Shown here one piece after another: positions 5,247 through 59,878 of a stretch of DNA of 64,000 bases. Made by a program: the position numbers and the translations under genes. Each line of letters opens with the position of its first letter. The stretch's first letter is position 1. The notes under the pieces were generated by a model that saw only the letters and a program-made list of their open reading frames with translations, did no database searches and was not told the DNA's origin. The stretch lies in contig NC_058368.1 in NCBI RefSeq assembly GCF_018350175.1, positions 9,238,001 through 9,302,000 on the forward strand, written 5' to 3'. The DNA comes from Felis catus. Lineage: Eukaryota.

Positions 5247-5260
5247 TTTTGTTTTGTTTT

Positions 5261-5475
5261 ATTTTTTTTTTAACGTTTTATTTCTTTTTGAGACACAGAG
5301 AGACAGAGCATGAATGGGGGAGGGGCAGAGACAGAGGGAGACACAGAATCAGAAGCAGGCTCCAGGCTCTGAGCCATCAGCCCAGAGCCCGATGCGGGGC
5401 TCGAACTCACGGACTGCGAGATCGTGACCTGAGCTGAAGTCGGACGCTCAACCGACTGAGCCACCCAGGCGCCCC
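5261..5475 (-). mobile_element. CAN-SINE
   Basis: Full length, inserted in a (GTTTT)n tract that is present on both sides. Confidence 0.97.
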
Positions 5476-5693
5476 TTGTTTTGTTTTGTTTTAATGAGAA
5501 TTTGCATTTCTAACAAGATCTCAGATGATGCTGATGATGCTGGTTCTGCGTCGGCACTTTGAGAATCTCTGCTTTAAGGACTTGGGCACACACACGGCTT
5601 GTGTTAATAATTGTTGCATGAATGAATGAGTGAGTGAGTGAGGAATGAATGAATGGATGGATAAAAGTCTTCCTTAGCAGCATCTTTAATATC

Positions 5694-5909
5694 CTCAGGA
5701 TTAATGTTTCTGCCTATAGGTATATCTTCTACAAAACATACTTCCTACAGTAAGGGAAAGCCATTTTTCTTTTTTTTTCTCCTTGAAGACAATCTTTTTT
5801 CATCCTGCCAGGCCAAATACCCTATGATAAATAGTTTAGTCTCTCTTGCTAATACCAGGGCACATGAAGTTCTCAACTGTGAAGGTGCCAGAAGTTCTCT
5901 GGATTCAAA
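5694..5909 (+). repeat. Diverged direct repeat, copy 1 (copy 2 at 6458-6680)
   Basis: About 80% identity over the 116-bp core by hand alignment. Confidence 0.85.
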
Positions 5910-6457: not shown

Positions 6458-6680
6458 CTCAGGATTATTCTTTATATAGAGATGTGATAAATATGTATTG
6501 TATCTTCAGGAAAGCACCCTTTCTACAGAAAAAGAAAGCTATTTTGTTTTTAAAGACTATCTTTTTCATTCTGCCAGGCCAACTGACCCGCAATGAGTAG
6601 GTTAGTTTCTCTTGTTAATTCCGGGGCACATAAAGTCCTCAACTGTGAAAATGCCAGAAGCTCTCTCTTCCTAGTTCAAA
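6458..6680 (+). repeat. Diverged direct repeat, copy 2
   Basis: Shared blocks tttttcat.ctgccaggccaa and gggcacat.aagt.ctcaactgtgaa..tgccagaag.tctct. Confidence 0.85.
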
Positions 6681-9300: not shown

Positions 9301-9534
9301 TTTTTTTTTTTTTTTTTTTAATTTTTTTTTTCAACGTTTATTTATTTTTGGGACAGAGAGAGACAGAGCATGAACGGGGGAGGGGCAGAGAGAGAGGGAG
9401 ACACAGAATCGGAAACAGGCTCCAGGCTCTGAGCCATCAGCCCAGAGCCCGACATGGGGCTCGAACTAACGGACCGCGAGATCGTGACCTGGCTGAAGTC
9501 GGACGCTTAACCGACTGCGCCACCCAGGCGCCCC
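9301..9534 (-). mobile_element. Young CAN-SINE (SINEC_Fc type)
   Basis: Full length with a long pure A tail; same TSD TGGCATATTCTT. Confidence 0.97.
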
Positions 9535-9721
9535 TGGCATATTCTTGATGTATACAATGGAGAGTATGTTTTGGTCTCACTCTCATCTCACTAGTTCCAT
9601 GTTATCTAACATAAATAGGTATGTCTGGGAGGTGGTGGGTGGACGCTTAGTAATTAGCTTCTGATGGAGATTGATCTGGAGAATAATAGTCGCGATCCTT
9701 TAAAAAACGTCCCCCAAAGAG

Positions 9722-9930: not shown

Positions 9931-12347
9931 AAAAACGTCCCCCAAAGAGAGAGGCCTTTCTACAAGCTGTGCGGCATGAGCCTAAATCACCTGCCTTTCT
10001 GCTAACTCGTAGAGATACACCTTCCTGCATTCTCGAATCTGAACCGTGAGCAAGAACAGCCCCGGCAGCTGTCCTCTCTCTCGCTTCCAGAGCTGTGGTC
10101 AAAAGGTAGCGGAAAAAAGCACACCCAGGCTTATGACACCATGACTGAGGACCTAAGTGTAAAAAGTGGGGGGATATTTCTTCAAGCTAATATACCCGAC
10201 ACCCTGAACTGTCAGAGTAAAACAAACAAAAATGGCTTCAGGTGAAAAAATAAATAAATTCTCAGAATCTGCATATGCCTAAAGGCTTCAAGCTCAGTAT
10301 GTACGATCAGAAGAAAATTTCCCCGGGGAAATCAATATCTTTATTGGTACTACCTCTGAGCCAGTCAGAATTGTTAAACGAGAAAATAAACTGGCAACCT
10401 TGTCCAAATGCTTCCTGCTAGGGGATGCGCGTGATCGAGTTATGTAGAGAGACTATCAATCATATATTTATTTGGCTTATCGGGATCAAATCTAGCGTTT
10501 GGGGTAAATCAGAGTGACATCATGACCCCCAGAGTTCCATGATTGAGATGATTAAGTCACCCCCATCCTTGGGGGGGGGTTTCTGAGTCGCCTCCATGAG
10601 ATTGAAGCCCGTTTCGCATTCAGCGCGACACATTCCCCCCTTGGAACAAGGCCGGGAACAAACATACGTTTAAATGGTTGGCCCGGTGTTCAAACGTGGG
10701 GCAGCCAAAACCCGCAAAGCAAAGAATGCACAGAGAGGAGCAGCGTGAACACCTTTAGTTGGCCCAGCCTTGGGAAGTGAGGTCCCAGGAAGGGAGGGAG
10801 GCTGTGGTGGGTGGGGACCCGGAGCCAGGCCCCTCCCCGCGGGGGCGCCAGGCAGGGGCTCCCCTCCCCCACCGCAGGCCCTCCCACCGGGTCACAAACC
10901 GGCCGACTTTCCAAGGGGAGGCGATGCTTTTGTGCTTCCCCAGCACAGCATCCTGAGGGAGGACGGAGGCAGGTGGCCTTTCACATTAGATTCTGTGGCC
11001 TGATGAATGACCACTTGCCCCGACTTCCGTTCATGTTTCCTCATTACCTTCTTTGTGCTCGCCACGGATTTGCTCTGGGTGAACCCGTGGGGCGTCGGGC
11101 TGGGAGTTTGTCAGGGCTAGTGGTCGCAAAGCGGAGCGAGGGGAGAAGTCAAGCCCCCTGTCCTGCTGGTGCAGGACTGGCAAGGGACATGAGCTTTGTC
11201 ATCAAGGGGAGCACCGCGTCTCTTAGAGCTTTAGGGATCCGTGTCTAGCTATGGGCCAAGGTGCGAGGCCAGATTCATCTGTAACGTCCTCATTTCTTCC
11301 TGGCCCCCTCTTCTGTCTTAGTGACCCTTGACTACTACCATTGCCCTCGGCTACGCCCAGTTTGGTTATCTCCAAACTGTAGCATAAATCCCTGCAGCCT
11401 TCCACATTCCAGCCTTTTCCTGATTCCCTGGCCCTATTAAAACGTGCTTCCTCTGCTGTCCGGTAGTAGGGTTTTGCGTTGTCTCCGTGTTATGACATAG
11501 GCATGCTTCGTGGGGGCTCTTCGTTCTTGGGAGGTGGGCATGGGGGAGAGAAGGGCATTCTACCTTCTGTGTGCTTTGTGAGATCTTTATATATAATAGA
11601 TCAGTGAGTAGCTTTGAGCTTCCTGGGAGGCAGAGACTATGAGCCTCATACTCCAGAAAAGATTCACAGAGGTCAAGAAACTTGCTGAAAATCTCGCAGC
11701 CAGTCCAGAGTGGACCTGGGATTCTAGCTCAGTTGGTTCAGAATAATCTGTGCTCTTTTCCCTACCTGGACGAGCCGCGGGCCGGTGGGCTCACGGCTGG
11801 CCCAGAGGGCCTTTTGCAGGCCCCCGTTTCACACCGTGGGCTGCCCGCTGATACGGTGCAACATCTCCAGGCCACTGGAGAGGCGGCGAAGTCCCCGACC
11901 CTGAATCTTCACCTGCTTCCCTCAAGTAGCTACTGGTAACTGCCTTTGCTCCCTCTCGGGAGCCTTCAAGTATCACGAGTGTGGGGTTTATGTCCCTCGT
12001 GCCTGGCACATGCTTGAGGAATAAAGTAAATCCGATGGGGATGATGCATTGCTATGAAATGTGCTGGCCCGTGGGCTGGTTCTGGGAAGAGGACCTAGAT
12101 CGGTGGCCTTGTCACCGGAAGAAGATTGGGCTCTATTCTGTCACTGTAACCAACATGTGAACGGGACCTCTCCGAGCAGCACGGTCAGATCAGAAACATG
12201 GCGTGACTTGAGGGGCGATCGCGTCCTTATTTCTGTAGACTAAACAGCCTGGAGAGTTAAAAGAGGAAGTGAAAACACATCTGTTAGGTTGACGATGCAA
12301 GGGCTACAAATTTAAAAAGAAACATCATTTAAAATGTGAAAAGTCTG

Positions 12348-12570
12348 GGGGCGCCTGGGTGGCGCAGTCGGTTGAGCGTCCGACTTCAGCCAGGTCACGA
12401 TCTCGCGGTCCGTGAGTTCGAGCCCCGCGTCAGGCTCTGGGCTGATGGCTCGGAGCCTGGAGCCTGTTTCCGATTCTGTGTCTCCCTCTCTCTCTGCCCC
12501 TCCCCCGTTCATGCTCTGTCTCTCTCTGTCCCAAAAATAAATAAACGTTGAAAAAAAAATTTAAAAAAAT
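12348..12570 (+). mobile_element. Young CAN-SINE (SINEC_Fc type)
   Basis: TSD AAAATGTGAAAAGTCTG. Confidence 0.97.
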
Positions 12571-12710
12571 AAAATGTGAAAAGTCTGGAAAATATTCTTT
12601 TTTATTCTATTCTATTCTATTTCATGGATAACATTCTTAATCTTCTGGTCCATGATAGGAATTAAAAAAAGAAAATCTCAGTCCCACAGACAAACAATGA
12701 AGTTCTTCTT

Positions 12711-33184: not shown

Positions 33185-34512
33185 GGAGGTGTGGATTTTA
33201 AAGCCACGTTTCCCAGCCCATGGTCCTTTTTGGGCTCCCGACTCATTAGGAGACTTTGGCCACATTCCCCCTCCCTGGCCTCTGTCTCTTCAGCGTTTGC
33301 CTGGGAGAGGCAGGAGGCCCAGAGGCAGGAGGGGACACAGCAGGAAGTTGCCAGTGCGCAGGGCAGGCTGGCTGAGGGAGGGAGGGGGGTGGGGGGAGAG
33401 AAAGGCCTTTGGTGGGGCAGCTCCAGGTGACTGGGTGACGCGTGAGGCCTGAGGCAGCCAGGCCCGGGGTCCAGCCGTGAAGCCCACACACCCACAGTCA
33501 CAGCCGGCCTGGCCAGGAACGAAGCAAGATCAAATATGGCAGAACACAGTGAGCTGAGCTCAGTGGCTCGGAAAAGAGCGGGGTGGCAGAACAGGACGCG
33601 GGGGGCGTCCCGTCACTCAGAGGTGCCGCTCAAGGTAAGAGGGCGGGAGCCTCCCTTGGTGTTTTTCACAACACCTCACAACAGGTTGTGGCCTTCCTTC
33701 ATTCATGTCAGACCCAGAGCGGTGGGAACGGACCCTTCTCCCCACCCGGGGCCGTTTGTCCCCAGACCACGTTCCCTATGCGTCCTGTTCTCCCACTTAA
33801 TCGGAGAGTGCGTCCCCCGCACCCCGCACCCCTGCTTACTCCGTCTTCTGACCCGCGGCTGATTGTATAGGTGTTTGGAGGTGTCGGCTCTGAAGTGTTA
33901 AAAATAAAACCAAGCTTTCCATACTGGGATTTCTCATTATCGTGCTTACAAATGAGGCCCGCTGCCGCGTTTCAACAATTGGCTAACAAGCTCTAATTTG
34001 AGCGTTTCGGCTGGACCTTTGCACAGCAGGAGCCGACTCGGAGCAGATGCCTTCTCACAACTGCCTGTTTGGGGAGCTGGTCACGTTCCCATTCTAGCAC
34101 AGCCTCCCTGAATAGAGAAGCCCCAGGTAGGGTGGACAAAAGGACGGCCAAGTCTGGAGAGCCTTCTGGTAGACGGCTATTGTGCCGGGCGGGCGGCGGG
34201 CCCAGGGAGAGGTTGCGGACGTCTGGCCAGGTACGCACAGCCTCCCCAGCCCGGCAAGAGGGCACTCGCCAGGTGAAGGTCAAGGTGTGGAGAGGAGGGC
34301 CTGGATACTCCTTCCACAGCTTCTTGGCCCCTGTGAAATGTTCCCACCAGAAAGTGCACGGCTCTCCGACTGGTGCCGAACTCAGTATACCTTGCGTGCT
34401 GAGTCTGCTTCCTGCCAATACTGTGCTTGTGACGGCAGAAGTCCTGGGCCAAGAACTGGGTTTGGCCAGTTCTTTTAGGGCAGGTTGAGTGGGTCAGCTG
34501 TAATAGACTTTT

Positions 34513-39759: not shown

Positions 39760-40100
39760 TAGAATGCATTAAAAAGTAAATCGCATCCGAGGGAAGGAGA
39801 AATAGTCATTTTGTTATGCTTCCCAGTGGACTCTTAGAAAACCACAAGCCAACTTGATTATTGCACTTTTCCAAAGATATGGAAAGACTTGAGACCATCC
39901 AGAAAGAACGACACAAATGTCACGAGAGGACGCGTGCGTTCGTCCCGTGAGGGAAGGTTAAAGCCTCAGGACTATTTCACCTCAAAAGGGATGAAGTGTC
40001 GTTGTTTCAAACACATGACAGGTTTGGAGCAGGAGGAGGCTGGTCTTTTGTTTCCTGAGTCTGTGGAGGCCACGACAAACAGTATAGATGGAAATAAGGA
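39760..40100 (+). mobile_element. L3/CR1 LINE relic (3' ORF2 region)
   Basis: Colinear CR1-like blocks: tgcattaa..agggaaggagaaatagtc; gatatggaaagacttgagaccatccaga; gtcccgtgagggaaggttaaag; ttcaaacacatgacagg. Confidence 0.6.
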
Positions 40101-40578
40101 CGATAAATAAGCCCTCTGGTGGCTTTCTGTTTCCTACAGACCACGGCAAAGCTCCTTTGCAGTGCAAGCCCACTTCTCATCACTGCCACCATTTGGCTGC
40201 AAACCCATGCCAGCTGCTGTCCCTCTGCCTCTGTTCCTTTGTGCCTTCCACACATCTTCTTGTCTCCACCAGCCTGGCTGGCAACTTTGCAGGTCCTCTG
40301 GGTTGTACCCACTCATGTTTCTGGCTTCTCCCAACACCAGGAGCTCCCAGCAACGGCGCTGGACCCAAGTGGGAACCCAGTGGAAGGTTGTTAAATCAAT
40401 GAACAATTTAAAGAGGAAATACTTCATGCTAAAGCAAAGGCCAGGAGAGAGATGCCTATTAAGGAATTTGGGGGCAAAATGCTGTGTGCTGTGCTCTGTG
40501 AACTCCTCTTCACCCCCCCGACCCAGTCTTCAGTCAAACCTACGCTGCTCACTAGTACTTTAGGCGGCGGGTTTTCTT

Positions 40579-40764
40579 GGGACGCCTGGGTGGCTCAGTC
40601 GGTTAAGCATTTGACTCTTGATCCCGGCTCAGGTCGTGAGCTCGAGGTTTGTGGGATTAAGCCCTGCATCCAAGCCCTGCTTGGGACTCTCTCTCTCCCT
40701 CTCTCTGCCCTATCCCCACTTGCACTCTCTCTCTCTGTTTCTTTCAAAATAAATAAATAAACTT
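40579..40764 (+). mobile_element. CAN-SINE with internal deletion
   Basis: gacgcctgggtggctcagtcggttaagc head and aaaataaataaataaac tail. Confidence 0.92.
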
Positions 40765-41070
40765 GACGTAGTGGGTTTTGCCTCTGGGAATGTAGTTCAG
40801 TGGGTAGTTCTGCTTCAGGGTGACGAGGGGCGGAACACCTGTGGCTGTCCAACACCTGTGTAACATGGAAAATCTGCTTTGCCTTTGAAGAAGTTTTGCT
40901 CATCCTCCTGTTTACGTCTAGGATCGAATCCCTCGAGAGGACTTTTCTCGGTCTCATTTCCTCACTGATCCCAAAAAAGAGTTCGTGTAGCTAGCTGAGT
41001 AACTAGCTTTTCCCATGGTAGGTTCCCAATAAATTCTTCAGATCTCATGGTAGTTCAACACCCATGCCCA

Positions 41071-41212
41071 TTCTGGGGTAGGAGCCATTGAATTTCTCCA
41101 TTACGCTGACCATCCACGGCTTAGCCCACCTCGGCCTGTCTGTGCAGAATTGTTGCTTAGAGAGTATTGTCCTGGGAGCCACACAGCCTCCTGGGAGGAG
41201 GTGGATGGAGAA
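41071..41212 (+). repeat. Inverted repeat arm A (partner 42268-42410)
   Basis: Reverse complement matches 42268-42410 with 9 substitutions and 1 indel (hand count). Confidence 0.95.
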
Positions 41213-42036
41213 TCTTTTAGAGTTACTCGGCACCTCCACTTGACCTGGGCCCGCTGCCCGGCGAACTTGACGAAGTACAGGGAGAACGCAGTGGTAGCAA
41301 TTGGCCCTCTACCACCGGAGACCTCGTTTGGCAAACTCTATTTTCCTGAAGCCATACTGCATTTTACGAGACCAGAAGGGATGGCGAGACTTCAGCTAGG
41401 TCACGCCTGTCTGTCTGAGCAGAACGGAACTCTAGTTCAGAGTTAGTTCCGAAGAGCTAGTTGCAGAAAGCTGGCTCTTCCTCTAAATCCCTACATGCCC
41501 CGATGACATTTCATCTTTTTATTTGTTTCCAAACCACGTTCCTCTCCCAAACAAGCCTTTGCTGTGTTTGCTTTAAGATACATTAGAACTCCAGTTTCCC
41601 ACTGTGCCTTTGTACCCCTTTGCCAAAATTATGCAAATTAAGAATAACCCCAATCTGGTTGGGGTTGCTGGTGATTGAAGAGTAATTGGGCTGTAATGTG
41701 CTAATCCGTATGCTAATATTTGTCCCTGAAGATACAGAGACCTGAAAACGCTAATGTGAGAGCCCCTCCATAACAGACTAAGATAGCTGGGAGTTTGGGG
41801 GAGGAGGAGAGAGGCGGGGAGCCAGATGGGGCTGAGAAGTCGCATGAGGGAATGGGCCTTCTGGAAACAGTGAGGGTTTTCGTTGGCTTCCTTACATTTC
41901 CCAGACTTGCAATGGTGACTACGTGTTACTATTACGAGCGGGAAACTGAACGTGAACCGTGGGAAGGAAAGATGATGAGGGACGCAGAAGCAGATGAGAG
42001 GGAGGTAGAGATGGGCCTTGCCAGAGCATCTCCCGG

Positions 42037-42070
42037 GAAGAGTTGGGTGCAGGAACGTTCCGCGGCACCT
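42037..42070 (+). repeat. ~34-bp direct repeat D1 (partner 42408-42442) flanking the composite insertion
   Basis: gaagagttgggtgcaggaacgttccgcggcacct vs gaagagttgggtgcagggacgttccacagccccct. Confidence 0.9.
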
Positions 42071-42410
42071 GGCTGGAGTCTTTCAACTCTATGGTGTATA
42101 TGTGGGATCCACCTGCTTCCTGGCGAAGGAAGCGGGGAGAATTCGCTAAAGAAATCTTTAATATCTCCGAGAAGACATTAAAGGGTTTTAAGAGTGTCAC
42201 AGAAAAAGACACATGTGACCAGGAAAGGACAGCCAGTCACTTATCATGGAAGTTCAGAGCTTCCTGCTTCTCCATCCACCTCCTCCCAGGAAACCGTGTG
42301 GCTCCAAGGACAATACTCTCTAAGCAACAATTCTGCACAGATGGGCCGAGGTGGGCTAACACGTGGATGGTCAACGTTAATGGAGAAATTCAATGGCTCC
42401 TACCCCAGAA
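42069..42410 (+). other. Composite templated insertion: inverted copy of 43138-43337 joined to inverted copy of 41071-41212
   Basis: Direct alignment on both strands; also visible as duplicated peptides in the ORF track (MSFSVTLLKPF..., ..APRTILSKQQFCTD..). Confidence 0.92.
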
Positions 42411-43137
42411 GAGTTGGGTGCAGGGACGTTCCACAGCCCCCTAGGGTCCGGGGGAGCGGCAGAGTCAGCTTTTAGGTGGTGAAGGCCCCAGCCGTGGCAC
42501 CATGGGTCTCGGGGCCCTTGAGTCTGAGAGAAATCAGAAACGACTTCACACCCAGTAGGAGAGGCAAATGCGAACACCACTCGGAAACTGTAAATGCCAT
42601 ACCCAGACCGTGTCTCTCCGTTCATTCCTTCAACACAATGTGTTCTACGAATAGAGATTAACTACAGTCCCAGCGCAGTACCCTCTCCTCTCTGTGGGGG
42701 AAGGGAAGATAAGTAGAGATGAATAAAACATCCTTTTCCTGTCTAAGGAGAAGAAGGCTTTCTGAAGGGAGCTCTGGTAATGAACTTGCAAGGGCAGTCT
42801 GTGGCCGGGGGCCTTCTCGTGGCTTCTGGCAGCAAAGAGCTCTGGCCCCCTGGGCTGACTGAGGGCTTAGCCAGGAGGGACGGAGAGGAGGCCATTGGGG
42901 ATGGTGGGATGATTGACTGGTTGCTTCGGAGAGGTGCTGAAGAAGGGCTGTGACCTCCTCGCATGGAAGGTCTTAAGAAAGAAGGTGGTGATCATGCAAA
43001 GTGCCTCAAACGGCGGCCCTTTGTTTGGGGGCTGCCTCTGGCCGCGTTCTACACTTGATCTTAGCCAGAAGGCCGAGAAACGACGGCCATGTTCTATCCC
43101 ATACCTTCATCAAACCCTTCCCACACATGATCCCACC

Positions 43138-43337
43138 AGCGGGAAGCTCTGAACTTCCATGATAAGTGACCGGCTGTCCTTTCCTGGTCACGTGTGTCTT
43201 TTTCTGTGACACTCTTAAAACCCTTTCATGTCTTCTCGGAGATATTAAAGATTTCTTCAGCGAATTCTCCCCGCTTCCTTCGCCAGGAAGCAGGTGGATC
43301 CCACATATACACCATAGAGTTGAAAGACTCCAGCCAG
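43138..43337 (+). repeat. Inverted repeat arm C (partner 42069-42268)
   Basis: 200 bp with 5 substitutions (hand count). Confidence 0.95.
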
Positions 43338-43890
43338 AGAGACACGAGTGCCATCAATGAAAGCAGCAACCTGTCAGAGAATAATGTGAATCATCTGGAC
43401 CAGCGGAAGCCATTTTCAAGGCGTACCTTTCTGATGTCATGGCTTCTGGTTTCCAGGCTCTGGTCTCAAATGGTCTCAGGCAAAGTACGTTAATACTGAT
43501 GCCATTTATTTGTACCAACGTACGGGAAAGGTGGTGGAAATGTTGGAAGACCTCTGCAGTCTCATTAGTTGGGTTGAGGCTAGGACCCTGCTTTCCACGC
43601 CGGAAATTGGGTCTAAAACCAGGAAAGTGAAATCTCCCAACGACGCAAATAACGTGCCATATGGGTACAGGTGATCAGTGCTCAGTGCCCGTTCTAGACG
43701 AAAGGTGTCTCCAGGATACTCTTTTAACAAAAGTAATGAGCTGTTCTTTGGTTGTAGGAAAAGAGGATGTTTGTTGATCACACGTCTTTTTAATCAGTAA
43801 TAGACACAGATGTTTTCCCATAGTTTTTTTTCTGACACAACTTCTCTAATCAAAGGTTCTCAGCATAAAAATAAAGGAGACAGATTTCTT

Positions 43891-44110
43891 TTTTTTTTTT
43901 TTTCAATGTTTATTTTTATTTTTGGGACAGAGAGAGAGAGAGAGCATGAACGGGGGAGGGGCAGAGAGAGAGGGAGACGCAGAATCGGAAACAGGCTCCA
44001 GGCTCCGAGCCATCAGCCCAGAGCCCGACGCGGGGCTCGAACTCACGGACCGTGAGATCGTGACCTGGCTGAAGTCGGACGCTTAACCAACTGCGCCACC
44101 CAGGCGCCCC
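43891..44110 (-). mobile_element. Young CAN-SINE (SINEC_Fc type)
   Basis: TSD GAGACAGATTTCTT. Confidence 0.97.
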
Positions 44111-45154
44111 GAGACAGATTTCTTTAAGCCACCAGAAGCGTCTCCTCTCTTAACTTCTGTGTTGTTGGCTCAACGTAAGTTACCCTGAAAACGACCACCT
44201 CCAAAGCCCTGAAAGTTCTCCTTGAATCATTTCACCCTAACAGGCTCTCTTATTTCATATAAACACAGCAGCAGGTACAATGCTTTAGGCAGGCAGAAAC
44301 ACGACAGGCGTCAAGCAAGAGTTGGGTTAGTTTGCGCCCATCTCGTTCAGACTAGAGCTTTGTATAATTTCATTCCTCTCTCTATCAATAACAATCCATC
44401 TGTCCTTGAAAAAAAAAATTCATTGACCTTCTCCAGGCTTCAGCTGGCTTGTCTGTCAAAAGATGGCTGAACTAAGTGTGTTTCCAAGTACCTCCTGGTT
44501 TAACTAAGCTGCCACGCTGAAGTAGTGTCCCCCCGCGGGACACGAGGGAGGAACAGCAAGGCCACCCCCCTGCCCCCCGCCCTCCTGACGACGCAGCCAG
44601 GTGCTCTCGGCTTCAGAACATGCTTTTATGTTCTCTCTTGTCTGACCGGAAGGAAAAGTTGGGACAGCCCGACTTTTGCTTCAAGGTCCAGCTCCAATAC
44701 CTTCTCTTGATCTGTCCGTCCCTCCTCCTTCCGCGTGTGTCAGCGGCTATACGTACATACGATGCAGGATCAACTCAGTTCTACAGGCGTGCCCCGAGCA
44801 CTTTATACATATCCCGATTACAAAAGAGGCATTTCTACGATGATGGCTAAGTTTCAGGATCAGTGAGGGGGGCAAAGTGGTCACAGACAGAATTTACCTT
44901 TGAAAAACCCTCAAGCTATCCCATGTGTGAGGGACTGTGTTTAGGAAAACTACTCCCGTCTTTCCCCCCGCCCCCGCCGTTTTATTGAGATATAATGGAC
45001 ATATAACACTGTATAAGTCGAAGATGTACAACATAATGATTTGATATATGATGTATTTTGTAAAATGATCACCACAGTAAGCTTAGTGAACATCCATACC
45101 CACGCATAGTTATTTTTTCTTGTAATGAGAACTGTTAAGATCTTCCTTACCAAC

Positions 45155-45377: not shown

Positions 45378-45414
45378 TCTTCGCAACGACTTTCTAATAG
45401 GCACTGCAGTATTA

Positions 45415-45630
45415 AAATTTTTTTTTTCAACGTTTATTTATTTTTGGGACAGAGAGAGACAGAGCATGAACGGGGGAGGGGCAGAGAGAGAGGGAGACAC
45501 AGAATCGGAAACAGGCTCCAGGCTCTGAGCCATCAGCCCAGAGCCTGACGCGGGGCTCGAACTCACGGGCCGCGAGATCGTGACCTGGCTGAAGTCGGAC
45601 GCTTAACTGACTGCGCCACCCAGGCGCCCC
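45415..45630 (-). mobile_element. Young CAN-SINE (SINEC_Fc type)
   Basis: TSD ATAGGCACTGCAGTATTA. Confidence 0.97.
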
Positions 45631-46856: not shown

Positions 46857-48423
46857 TTCCTGCACAGGAAGTCAGTGACCTTTATTTTAAAGAGACCTTT
46901 GTAATAAGCCATCTCCACTGAATGAGAAAGGAGACCCAGGATCCAGAGAACAAGGGATGGTGGCACCCAACGGATTTCGCGGCGCGTGTCCTTGGGGCTG
47001 CGACTTATCTCTTCCACCCCCAGGGAGCCAGGACAGGTCAGCTGTTGCAGACACCAGTCACGGGGTGGTTTCTATATTAAATGACCTGTTGTACTAATGG
47101 TGGGGTACCAAGGGGGTGGGGACCAAGGACATTAGTAGGAGCAACTGGGTGCCCCACAGCAGGAAGCAGCCACTGTGAGACCGTCACGGGACTGAGAGAC
47201 AAGGCGTTTCATCACAATCGTTCAGGGGTGTCTCTGTCCCTCGCAGGTTGGTTTCGCTCTTACTTTTTTTTTTTTTTTTCTCCTGAGCCCAGGCCCCCTT
47301 GACGTGCCCTGGCCACCACCGCGATCATTCTTTTTCCATCTTCTCCAAGCACTCAGCTTCAATTGGGGAACGAGGTGGGGAAGGCTTTCCTCCACCTCCC
47401 TGTATTCAGGAGCCCTGCGTCCGCTCTCTGCCGACTTCCTAGTCCAGCTCGTAAGCTAACTACTCGACCGCGATCAGTCAGTGCAGGGGGCACAAATGGA
47501 TAGACTCGGGGCACCCCTCTCCCCTCCACCCTCCCAGCCCAAGTGGTGGCCGACCCCCCCCGAGTCGGGGAGCCTGGCAAGCCACGGTCTCCCTCCTTGG
47601 GGTCCACTACATTTTCCCACCTCCACGGTCACGAGGGGAGAGGCCCGACACGTCTACATCTAGATTTGGGGTTTAGTCCCAACGAAGCTGGGAAGGAAAC
47701 ACGCATTCGCGTCTATGAGGCACCCTCTTTTATGCTTCTCTCCCAAGTCCCATGCAGCAAGCAACTGGAGGCAGCTGTTGGGGGAAAGCAGGGCTTGCTT
47801 GTCCTTACCTCTCCTGCCCCCATCGGGGGGGACAGCTCCGGCTCCGAGGGAAGACTCCCGGGGCAGGAAAGGGTCAACGCGGACAGAAATTTCCCGAGGC
47901 CCTAGACACTGTTTTGAGAGCGAAGGGAAGTCTGGGAGCGGGGAGTAAATGATGGGTGTTATTTTCAGTTGCCGGTTTAAATTATTAGTGTCCTCTGCTT
48001 AGCTGTCATCCTGAGCACCGAAGTTACAGCCTTGGCCTCACGACGATCTGTGTCCCTGCCCAACCGACCAGGCACGGGCGAGGAGCATCCCGTGCTGTCT
48101 GAGGACCCCGAACCTTCCCTTGCAGCCATAGGCAGCTGAGCTGCCCACCAGGCTGACAGACCCACGCCTGGCAGCGGGCATGTGTCGGCCCCGCCTGGCT
48201 GTGCCGTCCTCGCGGTTAGCGGTTTACGACCACAGAAAACAGGGGCGGCTGCAACTCAGGATGAACCTACGTCAGCCTATCCTACGTCTAGAGAAAAGGG
48301 CTTTAAGTATTAGAGAAAGCGAGATCCTGGATCGCCTGCCCTTGTTTTCTTGTTCCTCCTTTAACCACTCTGGCCTGATGTCCTGAAGGGACCTGAGCCA
48401 CGTTCCTGGCAGGGGTCTCCCCA

Positions 48424-48895: not shown

Positions 48896-49200
48896 GGTAC
48901 TGGAGGATTTTGAAATTAACAACACAAATATGACGGCGTGGGTTTATTTATAAATTTCGATTTCCCATGCTAAGAATGGTTCATCATGGTCCAGAAAAGG
49001 AGCGTCTGTTTACACGTTCAATTTCCTGATGATCGCAACACTGCGAACACAGAAAATCCAGAGGAGAGCTGTCGAGGCTGCAAAGTTTCTTTCCTTTATC
49101 TATTGTCTGATGCACAGTGCAGGGTTAAGTGCATAGCAGCATCTCACTAAATTCGTTCCGGTCTTTTGAGAGTAGCTTCACATTGTCAAAAGTATATTTT

Positions 49201-49419
49201 GGGGCGCCTGAGTGGCTCGGTCGGTTAAGCGTCCAACTTCGGCTCAGGTCATGATCTCACGGTCCGTGAGTTCGAGCCCCGCGTCGGGCTCTGTGCTGAC
49301 AGCTCAGAGCCTGGAGCCTGTTTCAGATTTTGTGTCTCCCTCTCTCTCTGCTCCTCCCTTGTTCATGTTCTGTCTGTCTCTGTCTCAAAAATAAATAAAC
49401 GTTAAAAAAAAATTTTAAA
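49201..49419 (+). mobile_element. CAN-SINE
   Basis: TSD AAAAGTATATTTT. Confidence 0.97.
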
Positions 49420-51564: not shown

Positions 51565-51771
51565 GGGGCGCCTGGGTGGCGCAGTCGGTTAAGCGTCCGA
51601 CTTCAGCCAGGTCACGATCTCGCGGTCCGGGAGTTCGAGCCCCGCGTCGGGCTCTGGGCTGATGGCTCAGAGCCTGGAGCCTGTTTCCGATTCTGTGTCT
51701 CCCTCTCTCTCTGCCCCTCCCCCGTTCATGCTCTGTCTCTCTCTGTCCCAAAAATAAATTAAAAAAAAAAA
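51565..51771 (+). mobile_element. Young CAN-SINE (SINEC_Fc type)
   Basis: TSD AAGTTACGTGGTT. Confidence 0.97.
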
Positions 51772-56821: not shown

Positions 56822-57368
56822 ATAGCAGGAGAAACAAGATCAAACCATGCCCGGGTTTCAATGCCTTGGGGAAATAACGGAGAGAAGGAAACTTTATTAA
56901 GGCGATCCCGTCAACTCTACCCATTCCTCGGAGGCGTTTCTGCTTTAAATATTCCAGTCCATTTTGGAGAGTGGAGGCAGATTGATCTCGCACTAAATGG
57001 ACGTTTAGTTAGATATAAGATGTGTAACCAGAGATGTTTTTTTCCCGTGGAGGCGTGAGGGGGGAGCCCCTCCAACTCCCACTACGGACAGGTCCAAGAC
57101 TCGCTGCACTGCTTCATTGCCTGAGAAGAAACTAGAATATTGTTCACAGTGCAACAGGGACACATCAGAAGAAAGGAAGAACAGGCATACATACATGACT
57201 TGGAGAAATGATGCGAGATGGGGCTTTTTTCCCTGGCTATCGTCCTTAAATGAATCCCAAACAAATGACCCTGTAACTTCTCAGTACTAACCCCAGAGCA
57301 AGGAAAAAACAACAACAACAAACAAAACCATTTTATTTTCTGGTCTTTCTCCTTTTTGTTTCACTCTT

Positions 57369-57564
57369 TTTTTTTTTTTTGGACAGAGAGAGACAGAGCA
57401 TGAACGGGGGAGGGGCAGAGAGAGAGGGAGACACAGAATCGGAAACAGGCTCCAGGCTCTGAGCCATCAGCCCAGAGCCTGACGCGGGGCTCGAACTCAC
57501 GGACCGCGAGATCGTGACCTGGCTGAAGTCGGACGCTTAACCGACTGCGCCACCCAGGCGCCCC
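57369..57564 (-). mobile_element. Young CAN-SINE lacking the terminal AATAAA repeats
   Basis: TSD TGTTTCACTCTT. Confidence 0.97.
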
Positions 57565-57928
57565 TGTTTCACTCTTAATAAGCTCAGGACAGCTGTGAGC
57601 CGCTCCTCCACCCCCCACCCCTCCCCCGTTGTCCTGACACTTTACTGCAAAGCTCTAAAAATTGTCCGGCCTGTATCGTATTCAAGCTGGCGCAATCCAG
57701 CAATTTCTTGATTATTTGACTGGGGGCCTGCAACAGGTTCAATGCTTTCCTGAGCACCGTGGAGTTCAGAAAAGAAAACTATTCTTTGTCCTTGTCCCGA
57801 AGGAGCCTACGGATTTGCCAACACGCAGGAAGTTGTTAGAGACTATAGCACAGGGGATTAGTAACCCAGCCCCCTAAAGCATGGGACATAGGATAACTGC
57901 TGCTTCTCCAGTCTTGAGGAACAGTCTT

Positions 57929-58149: not shown

Positions 58150-59010
58150 AAACAATCCTGATGCTGATAAGACTCCTTTGCTGCCTCCCTCCGTCCTCCA
58201 TTATGGTCCTGGGAATCCCACTGGGCCCAGGGCCCACCCAATTGCAAGGATGGTTTCACCTCCGTTCTTAGCAACTGCGCTTGAGATAGGGAGTTTGTAC
58301 CCAGCGGCAAACCTTTGTCCCCTCCTCCCCCAGGGCGGCCCCCAATCCTGTCCCATCCCCCATCTCCTGTTAGGGGTGTGTGCCGATCTCTTCTCTCCCT
58401 CAGAGACAAAGCTTCAGAGGGCTGACCTGTCCCATCTGCTGCCCCCAGGGATAAGAAATTGATTTTGTTCCCACGAAACAGATCGCTGGCTGACAGAAGG
58501 TCAGGTTCAACCCTCTAGGAAATGCAAGCAACAAGATGTATGAGCTCTGAACCCGAAATAGGAACGAAGGGGCTAACGCTTCTTGAGTTAGGAGGGCCTT
58601 CTGATTCATCGCTAATGGAAAGAGAAGGTCAAGGGAAAATTTGGCGAAGGCAAATGAGGCCTTCAAAAGCTTGCTTTGGGATAACCATGGCCCCCTGTGC
58701 TTTGGGGGTGGGTTTCTTCATCCTCAGCCTGTCCAGAGCCAACACAACAGCAGCTGCTTTGCCCTCGAGAGCCAGATGTGAGATGTGAGCCACTCTCTGA
58801 GGAGCCAGGCTGCTAAGCGGCCTCCTAGAAGTCCACCCCATCCCCTGGCCTGCACGGTGTCCTGGCAATGTGTCAGGGACCTGGGCCAACACCTCCCTTC
58901 CCCCGACCAAGCACCTGAGTGCCAGCATTTGAGTGGAGCTTGATGGGGGAGTCACAAGAAGCTGTCTCGGTAGCAGCAAGAGCCCCCGATCTGTTAAAAC
59001 TATCAGCCTT

Positions 59011-59215
59011 GGGGCGCCTGGGTGGCGCAGTCGGTTAAGCGTCCGACTTCAGCCAGGTTGCAATCTCGCGGTCCGTGAGTTCGAGCCCCGCGTCGGGCTC
59101 TGGGCTGATGGCTCGGAGCTTGGACCCTGTCTCCGATTCTGTGTCTCCCTCTCTCTCTGCCCCTCCCCCGTTCATGCTCTGTCTCTCTCTGTCCCCCCCC
59201 CCACCAAAAAAAAAA
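59011..59215 (+). mobile_element. Young CAN-SINE (SINEC_Fc type)
   Basis: TSD TTAAAACTATCAGCCTT. Confidence 0.97.
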
Positions 59216-59639
59216 TTAAAACTATCAGCCTTGAAAATCGCTTTCTAGGTAAAGAGCCGGAAGCCTCTTGTGCCTCCAGTTCTACCAGCCAGTCGAGGAG
59301 ATTTGGTCCAGGTCTCCTTCGTAAAGCCTAGAGCTTTTCTTCCGCAACAGTCCAAGATCCTGCTCCGTTATTGCAGCCCAACCCGCCTGCCACCTCCTCC
59401 GAGATGCCCTCGAGGACCGAGAGACACCCTCCCACCCCATACCTCATTTAACCCTGGCCCATTCCTGTCCCTGGTCATCCTAGCTAATGGCTCCGCAGTT
59501 TTGGTCCTTATCTCCCAGCCCTGTGTGTGTCCCGTGTTCCATTCCTCGTGGTGTCACCACACGCTGCTTGGCTGGAGGTGATGCTGGGCACCGACAGCGG
59601 CAGCTTTTGATTGGCGAGGATACAACACTCGACCTCCCC

Positions 59640-59878
59640 GGGCGCCTGGGTCGCTCAGTTGATTAAGCATCTGACTGTTAATTTTGGTTCAGGTCACGAT
59701 CTCATGGTTCTCGAGTTCGAGTCCTGTGTAGGGCTCTGCGCTGACGGCATGGAGCCTGCTTGGGATCCTCTCCCTTCCTTTTTTTCTGCCCCTCCCCTGC
59801 TCACGTTCCCTCTTTCTCCTCTCTTTTTCTCAAAATAAACAAAATGCTTAAAAAATTAAAAACAAACAAACAAACAAA
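59640..59878 (+). mobile_element. CAN-SINE
   Basis: Full body with (AAAC)n tail. Confidence 0.93.

Follow-up and report, generated by a model that had tools for sequence, protein, structure and literature searches.

Polymerase-theta inserts are usually tens of bp in length and are copied from immediately flanking DNA. Two template-switching schemes, FoSTeS and MMBIR, are said to have been put forward by Lee et al. in 2007 and by Hastings et al. in 2009, respectively, and the four-point model of short-range template-switch mutations reportedly stems from the work of Loytynoja and Goldman in 2017. In the available text on this model, a template lying ahead of point 1 denotes an inter-strand switch, and a return point that precedes the departure point gives rise to one large insertion accompanied by a direct repeat (Walker et al., 2021, PMC7954356). 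Templated insertions of the human germline are described, in the portion of the source at hand, as inverted, multi-part and joined by microhomology (Osia et al., 2021, PMC8421209). Tumor genomes offer a further class, the 'cycles' of templated insertions, which the accessible sections of that study define as strings that return to re-replicate a segment of the host (Li et al., 2020, PMC7025897). Among de novo germline structural variants templated insertions are rare, accounting for 6 of 1,870 in the excerpt that reports them (PMC12583596). Template switching has also been credited, in the available part of another report, with the origin of hairpins and new miRNAs (PMC10710096).

The locus considered here lies in the window, the whole stretch of 64,000 nucleotides of Felis catus DNA that was analysed (C1:9238001-9302000), in which there is no N. 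A repeat search of 40000-44500 combined with local alignment finds in it an insert of 342 nt (C'+A'), composed of backward copies of two nearby stretches and placed between two copies of a duplicated target, D. The elements, in order along the window, are as follows.

41071-41212, plus strand: A, 142 nt, source template of the second inserted piece; single-copy.
41213-42036, no strand: x, unique spacer from A to the insertion site; left part of the skipped 1,925 nt, with neither internal nor genomic repeat.
42037-42069/42070, plus strand: D1, left copy of the duplicated target, 33-34 nt; abuts the left edge of the insert.
42069-42268, plus strand: C', 200 nt, inverted copy of C; first piece of the insert.
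42268-42410, plus strand: A', 143 nt, inverted copy of A; second piece of the insert.
42408-42440/42442, plus strand: D2, right copy of the duplicated target, 33-35 nt; direct repeat of D1.
42443-43137, no strand: y, unique spacer from the insertion site to C; right part of the skipped stretch, including a decayed U2-like fragment.
43138-43337, plus strand: C, 200 nt, source template of the first inserted piece; single-copy.

Over its 200 nt, C' differs from the reverse complement of C by 5 substitutions (97.5% identity), and A' matches the reverse complement of A at 93% identity, with 9 substitutions and 1 indel, an extra T at 42377. The direct repeat of D1 (42037-42069) and D2 (42408-42440) is identical at 29 of 33 nt, with 4 substitutions, or extends to 34 versus 35 nt with one indel when the terminal CT is counted in. 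The starts of the two D copies are 371 nt apart, which equals the net gain. In a 3.5-kb self-comparison the blastn E-values are 4e-76 for C, 2e-46 for A and 1e-5 for D; given these values and the position of D exactly at both edges of the insert, all three matches are far beyond chance. The original prediction had set out coordinates, element order and difference counts for A, C', A' and C together with a direct duplication of ~34 bp in D1/D2, and each of these survives repeat search and local alignment. The self-comparison that it proposed for 40.5-44 kb, run on 40500-44000 with a word size of 7, reproduces the structure and, apart from a weak match to a SINE tail at the edges, yields nothing else, which means that no additional piece has been overlooked. 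A third D-like copy, at 41190-41227, was considered and set aside, its match being weak (63% identity) and taken as chance.

In the reverse complement of the insert, A runs straight into C, with native order and orientation kept, and one strand, read in one direction, therefore served as the template for both pieces. The middle 'switch' amounts to a jump over 1,925 nt (41213-43137) of a single template, D and the insertion site lying within the stretch passed over. As in other templated insertions, a copy of nearby DNA is present with its source retained, since C' and A' match C and A, both still in place beside their copies, and microhomology is found at each junction (2, 1 and 3 nt). Measured from the insertion site, the templates lie 825-999 bp upstream (A) and 1,068-1,268 bp downstream (C). 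The earlier placing of the switches 'within about 1 kb' is loose.

This is the same signature as that of the germline MMB-TIs in the available text of Osia et al. (PMC8421209). The MMB-TIs recovered by MMBSearch, as far as that text specifies them, have a template at ≤100 bp and an insert no longer than the read length, whereas the case here, although inverted too, has its templates at 825-1,268 bp and an insert of 342 bp (PMC8421209). That the locus falls outside the MMBSearch settings reflects a limit of the detection method and not biology.

Adjacent elements overlap by CT between D1 and C' (42069-42070, 2 nt), by T between C' and A' (42268, 1 nt) and by GAA between A' and D2 (42408-42410, 3 nt); these are the overlaps first proposed, and sequence reading and local alignment agree on them. 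Their sum, 2+1+3 = 6 nt, is reached or exceeded with P = 0.034 analytically and P = 0.038 in 20,000 random breakpoint triplets from the same 3.1 kb. The excess of microhomology over chance is modest, the overlaps being short and one of them a single base. The A'/D2 junction additionally displays extended imperfect homology (6/8 nt). When unusual DNA folding was assessed, none of the six breakpoint contexts performed better than shuffled sequence (z -0.56 to +1.20), so nothing marks a stalling site. D1 contains a 10-nt perfect palindrome at 42052-42061, overlapping CCGCGG, which is given no weight because the fold test at the breakpoint contexts is null.

The best reading of the structure is a heritable templated insertion that persists as a neutral mutational scar. 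A single episode of template switching of the FoSTeS/MMBIR type, carried out by a nascent 3' end with its templates within 2.3 kb on one strand, is given about an even chance, and within it we infer the order of the switches, the single round and the enzymology. The ancestral arrangement would have been A - x - D - y - C, all of it unique non-coding DNA. The growing 3' end would have departed from its template where D ends (42069/70), paired via CT with the opposite strand ~1.27 kb further on and copied C in reverse, from 43337 to 43138. It would then have skipped 1,925 nt on the same template strand, re-primed on one shared base and copied A backwards from 41212 to 41071, before returning via GAA to the original template at 42037, 33 nt behind its departure point. 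A return at that distance would have led to D being copied again, which accounts for the direct repeat D1/D2. With all templates within 2.3 kb and on one strand, the arrangement fits switching in one stalled fork or in one repair-synthesis tract. A mirror-image route, with replication arriving from the right, would be equally possible.

Two described systems come close to this single-episode scheme. The four-point model shares with it reverse-complement copying in one fork, and the direct repeat expected when 'point 4' lies 'before point 1' corresponds to D1/D2; in the available text, however, that model involves one fragment of tens to hundreds of nt, whereas two fragments, six points and a kilobase reach are found here (PMC7954356). 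The six points comprise the departure at 42069/70, the ends of the copies 43337-43138 and 41212-41071, and the return at 42037. Since the C template lies ahead of the departure, the first jump would count as an inter-strand switch under the model as Walker et al. present it (PMC7954356). The cycles and local n-jumps of cancer genomes likewise involve a copied string that returns, a host segment replicated again (D in the present case), local templates, one-copy gains and inverted junctions, but they are somatic and detected in tumors at a larger scale in the sections at hand, while the insert is inherited, sub-kilobase and millions of years old (PMC7025897). In the vocabulary of that study, as far as its accessible sections set it out, the insert is a miniature, all-local 'cycle of templated insertions' or a local 3-jump (PMC7025897).

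The three junctions might instead have been produced in one event without replication. A double-strand break at D would have been mended by microhomology-primed synthesis, as in synthesis-dependent or polymerase-theta end joining, or by capture of nascent strands. The 1-3 nt overlaps fit such a history, and the 200- and 142-nt pieces share strand polarity, as lagging-strand fragments would. In size, the insert departs from polymerase-theta end joining: at 342 bp, with templates ~1 kb off, it is long against inserts that are usually tens of bp. Re-copying the 33 nt of D also needs an intact D template, which is natural at a fork or on a sister chromatid and less so at a simple break. Yeast double-strand breaks do gain inverted, multi-part templated insertions through microhomology-primed synthesis and end joining, and the available text on them describes a new strand being unwound and complex inserts whose two pieces are drawn from a single locus, in parallel to the case here (PMC11724301). 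Yet the local fold-back insertions in the same text are mostly <14 bp, reach at most ~150 bp and depend on end joining, whereas no break is demonstrable at the cat locus (PMC11724301). Repair of a break is on balance an unlikely origin. Of what was originally proposed, then, templated insertion by template switching agrees with the composite inverted copies, the target duplication and the short microhomologies; FoSTeS/MMBIR and polymerase theta, and more generally the replicative and break-repair versions, cannot be separated by sequence alone.

The collinearity of the insert with A...C, with precisely the interior missing, brings to mind a long inverted duplication of the whole of 41071-43337 at D whose middle 1,925 bp were later deleted. 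Long inverted repeats are generally regarded as unstable and deletion-prone. This route requires two events, however; a sensitive self-blast reveals no x', D' or y' remnant in the insert, and the unequal divergence of the pieces is left unexplained. It is considered very improbable. In a paired-duplication inversion (dupINVdup), the segment between two duplicated blocks is itself inverted. Such an event was rejected for this locus, where self-comparison finds x and y once each and in native orientation.

The original prediction also described a single germline event, which is not established, as the pieces differ in divergence. Substitutions affect 5/200 positions of C (2.5%), 9/142 of A (6.3%, plus the indel) and 4/33 of D (12%), with 13/175 (7.4%) for A and D pooled. 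A chi-square test over the three pieces gives p = 0.031, and Fisher's test of C against A+D (5/200 vs 13/175) gives p = 0.030. Restricting the latter comparison to non-CpG sites (2/186 vs 8/159) gives p = 0.049, and a CpG-stratified Poisson model returns an age ratio of 2.7 (likelihood-ratio test, LRT, p = 0.047). The value becomes p = 0.12 when adjacent doublets in A are counted once, and CpG sites alone give p = 0.69. A common origin of all junctions in one episode is therefore not secure, the divergence appearing heterogeneous at p = 0.03-0.12 depending on the counting scheme, and two successive insertions at one point stay a live rival.

Two successive templated insertions, A' with the D duplication first and C' later, are possible but doubtful. 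The A/A' inverted repeat would have been made in the first step. A nascent strand would later have stalled at its loop-side edge (42268, the pairing partner of 41212) and switched to C, ~1 kb further on, where 200 nt would have been copied before it came back to the same point. The lower divergence of C/C' relative to A/A' and D1/D2, as seen in the Fisher, non-CpG and stratified comparisons, points in this direction, as does the precise location of C' on the border between D1 and A', where the edge of a stem made by the first event would lie; each step, moreover, would be a plain two-switch event. The signal is nonetheless borderline, as the doublet-corrected and CpG-only values indicate, and without genuine hotspot activity of the inverted repeat a second hit 0-1 bp from the first junction is improbable. 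Gene conversion between C and C' could also produce the divergence gradient, and so could synthesis that becomes ever more error-prone along its tract, a behavior taken from the available part of PMC4352052. The corresponding picture of stepwise growth, in which the A/A' inverted repeat acted as a fork-stalling point and a later switch at its inner edge added C', is put forward tentatively. If true, it would mean that templated insertions seed further ones at their own junctions and that composite inverted-repeat clusters accumulate stepwise in germline DNA, with the ~2.7-fold lower divergence of C/C' as its trace.

Whether one episode or two, the copies have diverged on both sides since they were made. 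CpG sites account for 8 of the 18 substitutions, distributed over C', A, A' and D2. Three of the five C differences are CpG-to-TpG/CpA changes on the insert side (42214, 42235 and 42265 in C'), another CpG difference lies in A (41185), one CpG has decayed twice, on opposite strands (42342 in A' and 41137 in A), and two of the four D differences represent decay in D2 (42433 and 42435). Such a spread over both copies implies that they are old and real. Kimura distances are 0.026 for C, 0.067 for A, 0.135 for D and 0.050 for the pooled pieces. The mammalian neutral rate is ~1-2.2e-9 per site per year, at which the pooled divergence suggests an age of roughly 11-25 million years and C alone suggests 6-13 million years. 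The SINE copies of the window are pairwise 2.5-10% apart, and the event therefore falls in the period over which that family was active.

Long-read assemblies are known to contain inverted local duplicates as one class of artefact, and the 33-nt flanking repeat superficially resembles a target-site duplication. An origin of the insert in chimeric or fold-back reads, or in the arrival of a mobile element or retrocopy, is nevertheless barely credible. Fold-back or chimeric reads would give identical copies, whereas those here are 2.5-12% apart, with CpG decay on the insert and its sources alike; the argument against an assembly artefact that was first drawn from CpG differences across the insert, arm A and D2 thus holds. 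Sequencing runs bear on the same point: 20 runs from nine studies hold 0.88-0.94 of the words sampled from the locus, against a ceiling of ~0.89 for an insert-free allele.

Mobile elements are addressed by copy number. When the 2.43-Gb assembly (71 contigs) was searched, the 342-bp insert gave 3 matches only (to itself, to A and to C), which rules out the involvement of a repeat family. The interval 40700-43800 has at least 44 matches in the genome (the best 40 of 220 candidates were scored): 1 to itself, 4 internal, 37 to its first ~65 nt, which are a SINE tail, and 2 to a 37-nt U2-like stretch. Among the matches listed, A, C, D, x and y have no other genomic match, the U2-like stretch of y aside. 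Across the window, only C/C' and A/A' are repeats of at least 100 bp and at least 90% identity with a single partner, all others being SINE copies. A DNA transposon or dispersed repeat was accordingly ruled out on the three matches in 2.43 Gb and the lack of terminal inverted repeats. No A or T run that could represent poly(A) or poly(T) occurs at either end of the insert, and neither strand of the skipped 41213-43137 has GT-AG or AT-AC ends, even allowing for the 1-nt ambiguity. These negative findings, together with the missing terminal inverted repeat, exclude a mobile element and a spliced retrocopy; a LINE-mediated processed pseudogene was likewise rejected, on the same poly(A) and intron-end results and on the GC-rich insertion site. 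The original prediction had noted neither transposon signature nor poly(A), which is borne out and now extends to terminal inverted repeats and canonical splice sites, and it had named dispersed-repeat membership of A and C as one of the findings that would overturn it; each of the two occurs exactly twice in the 2.43-Gb genome.

Polarity can be read from the arrangement. A chimeric, contiguous block bounded by a direct repeat is found only at C'A', with no such repeat at A or C, which by structure and parsimony fits C'A' as the derived insert and A and C as its sources, as was originally suggested. Word shares were obtained from 303 sampled words of 40700-43800 in 20 runs of one organism. As 340 of the 3,071 words in this interval (11.1%) depend on the insert, an allele lacking it could reach ~0.89, or ~0.925 with two binomial standard deviations of sampling. 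Nine runs (8 samples, 4 studies), one of which, a top run, may be the assembly's own source, stand at ≥0.93 and must therefore hold insert-dependent words; two others, at 0.89 and 0.88, are compatible with lacking the insert. The word shares of the 20 runs support fixation of the insert indirectly. Unique anchors of the locus gave 0 stretches in two metagenome scans.

In its significance, the insert is a clean but ordinary scar of faulty copying, with no function indicated. It provides a clean natural case of a multi-template, all-local templated insertion kept in the mammalian germline, in which both sources, both target copies and all three junctions can still be read. As such it may be of use in teaching, in dating clades (as a rare-genomic-change marker, once orthologues are aligned) and in asking whether inverted repeats left by one template switch attract a second. 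No new mechanism is revealed, and to a specialist the case will be tidy and unsurprising. If the region were transcribed, long double-stranded RNA could arise from the two new pairs of inverted repeats. Judged from its ORFs of at least 95 aa, the interval looks non-coding: across the window, 122 stop-to-stop ORFs of that size gave 0 Pfam matches above the curated cut-off, with one sub-threshold match, DUF6060 (20.1 bits vs 26.5).

At the gathering threshold, Rfam has 0 matches in the window. Under a relaxed threshold, a decayed U2 snRNA-like fragment appears at 42965-43084 on the minus strand, within spacer y and 54 bp from the left edge of C (RF00004, 32.9 bits vs a gathering score of 46, E = 3.6e-4). 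The 5' 36 nt of this fragment are well kept, and a 37-nt core recurs at 97% identity in at least 2 other places of the genome.

Other repeats in the window belong mostly to a SINE of ~215 bp, present in at least 10 copies that are pairwise 90-97.5% identical and have 19-24 partners each. Its head appears to resemble the carnivore tRNA-derived SINEs. Copies are located at 950-1167, 5247-5476, 9306-9535, 12348-12574, 43894-44110, 45412-45630, 49196-49412, 51565-51766, 57353-57565 and 59011-59195, and the youngest pairs are as similar to each other as C is to C'. An older local duplication may account for another pair with a single partner, the direct repeat at 5783-5900 and 6550-6666 (119 bp, 81.5% identity, 650 bp between the copies). 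The window begins 9.2 Mb from the contig start. Its CpG observed/expected ratio is 0.48 over 64 kb, a value that is high for bulk mammalian DNA, and CpG-island-like stretches occur at 11751-12250, 33501-34250, 47251-48250 and 59001-59750.
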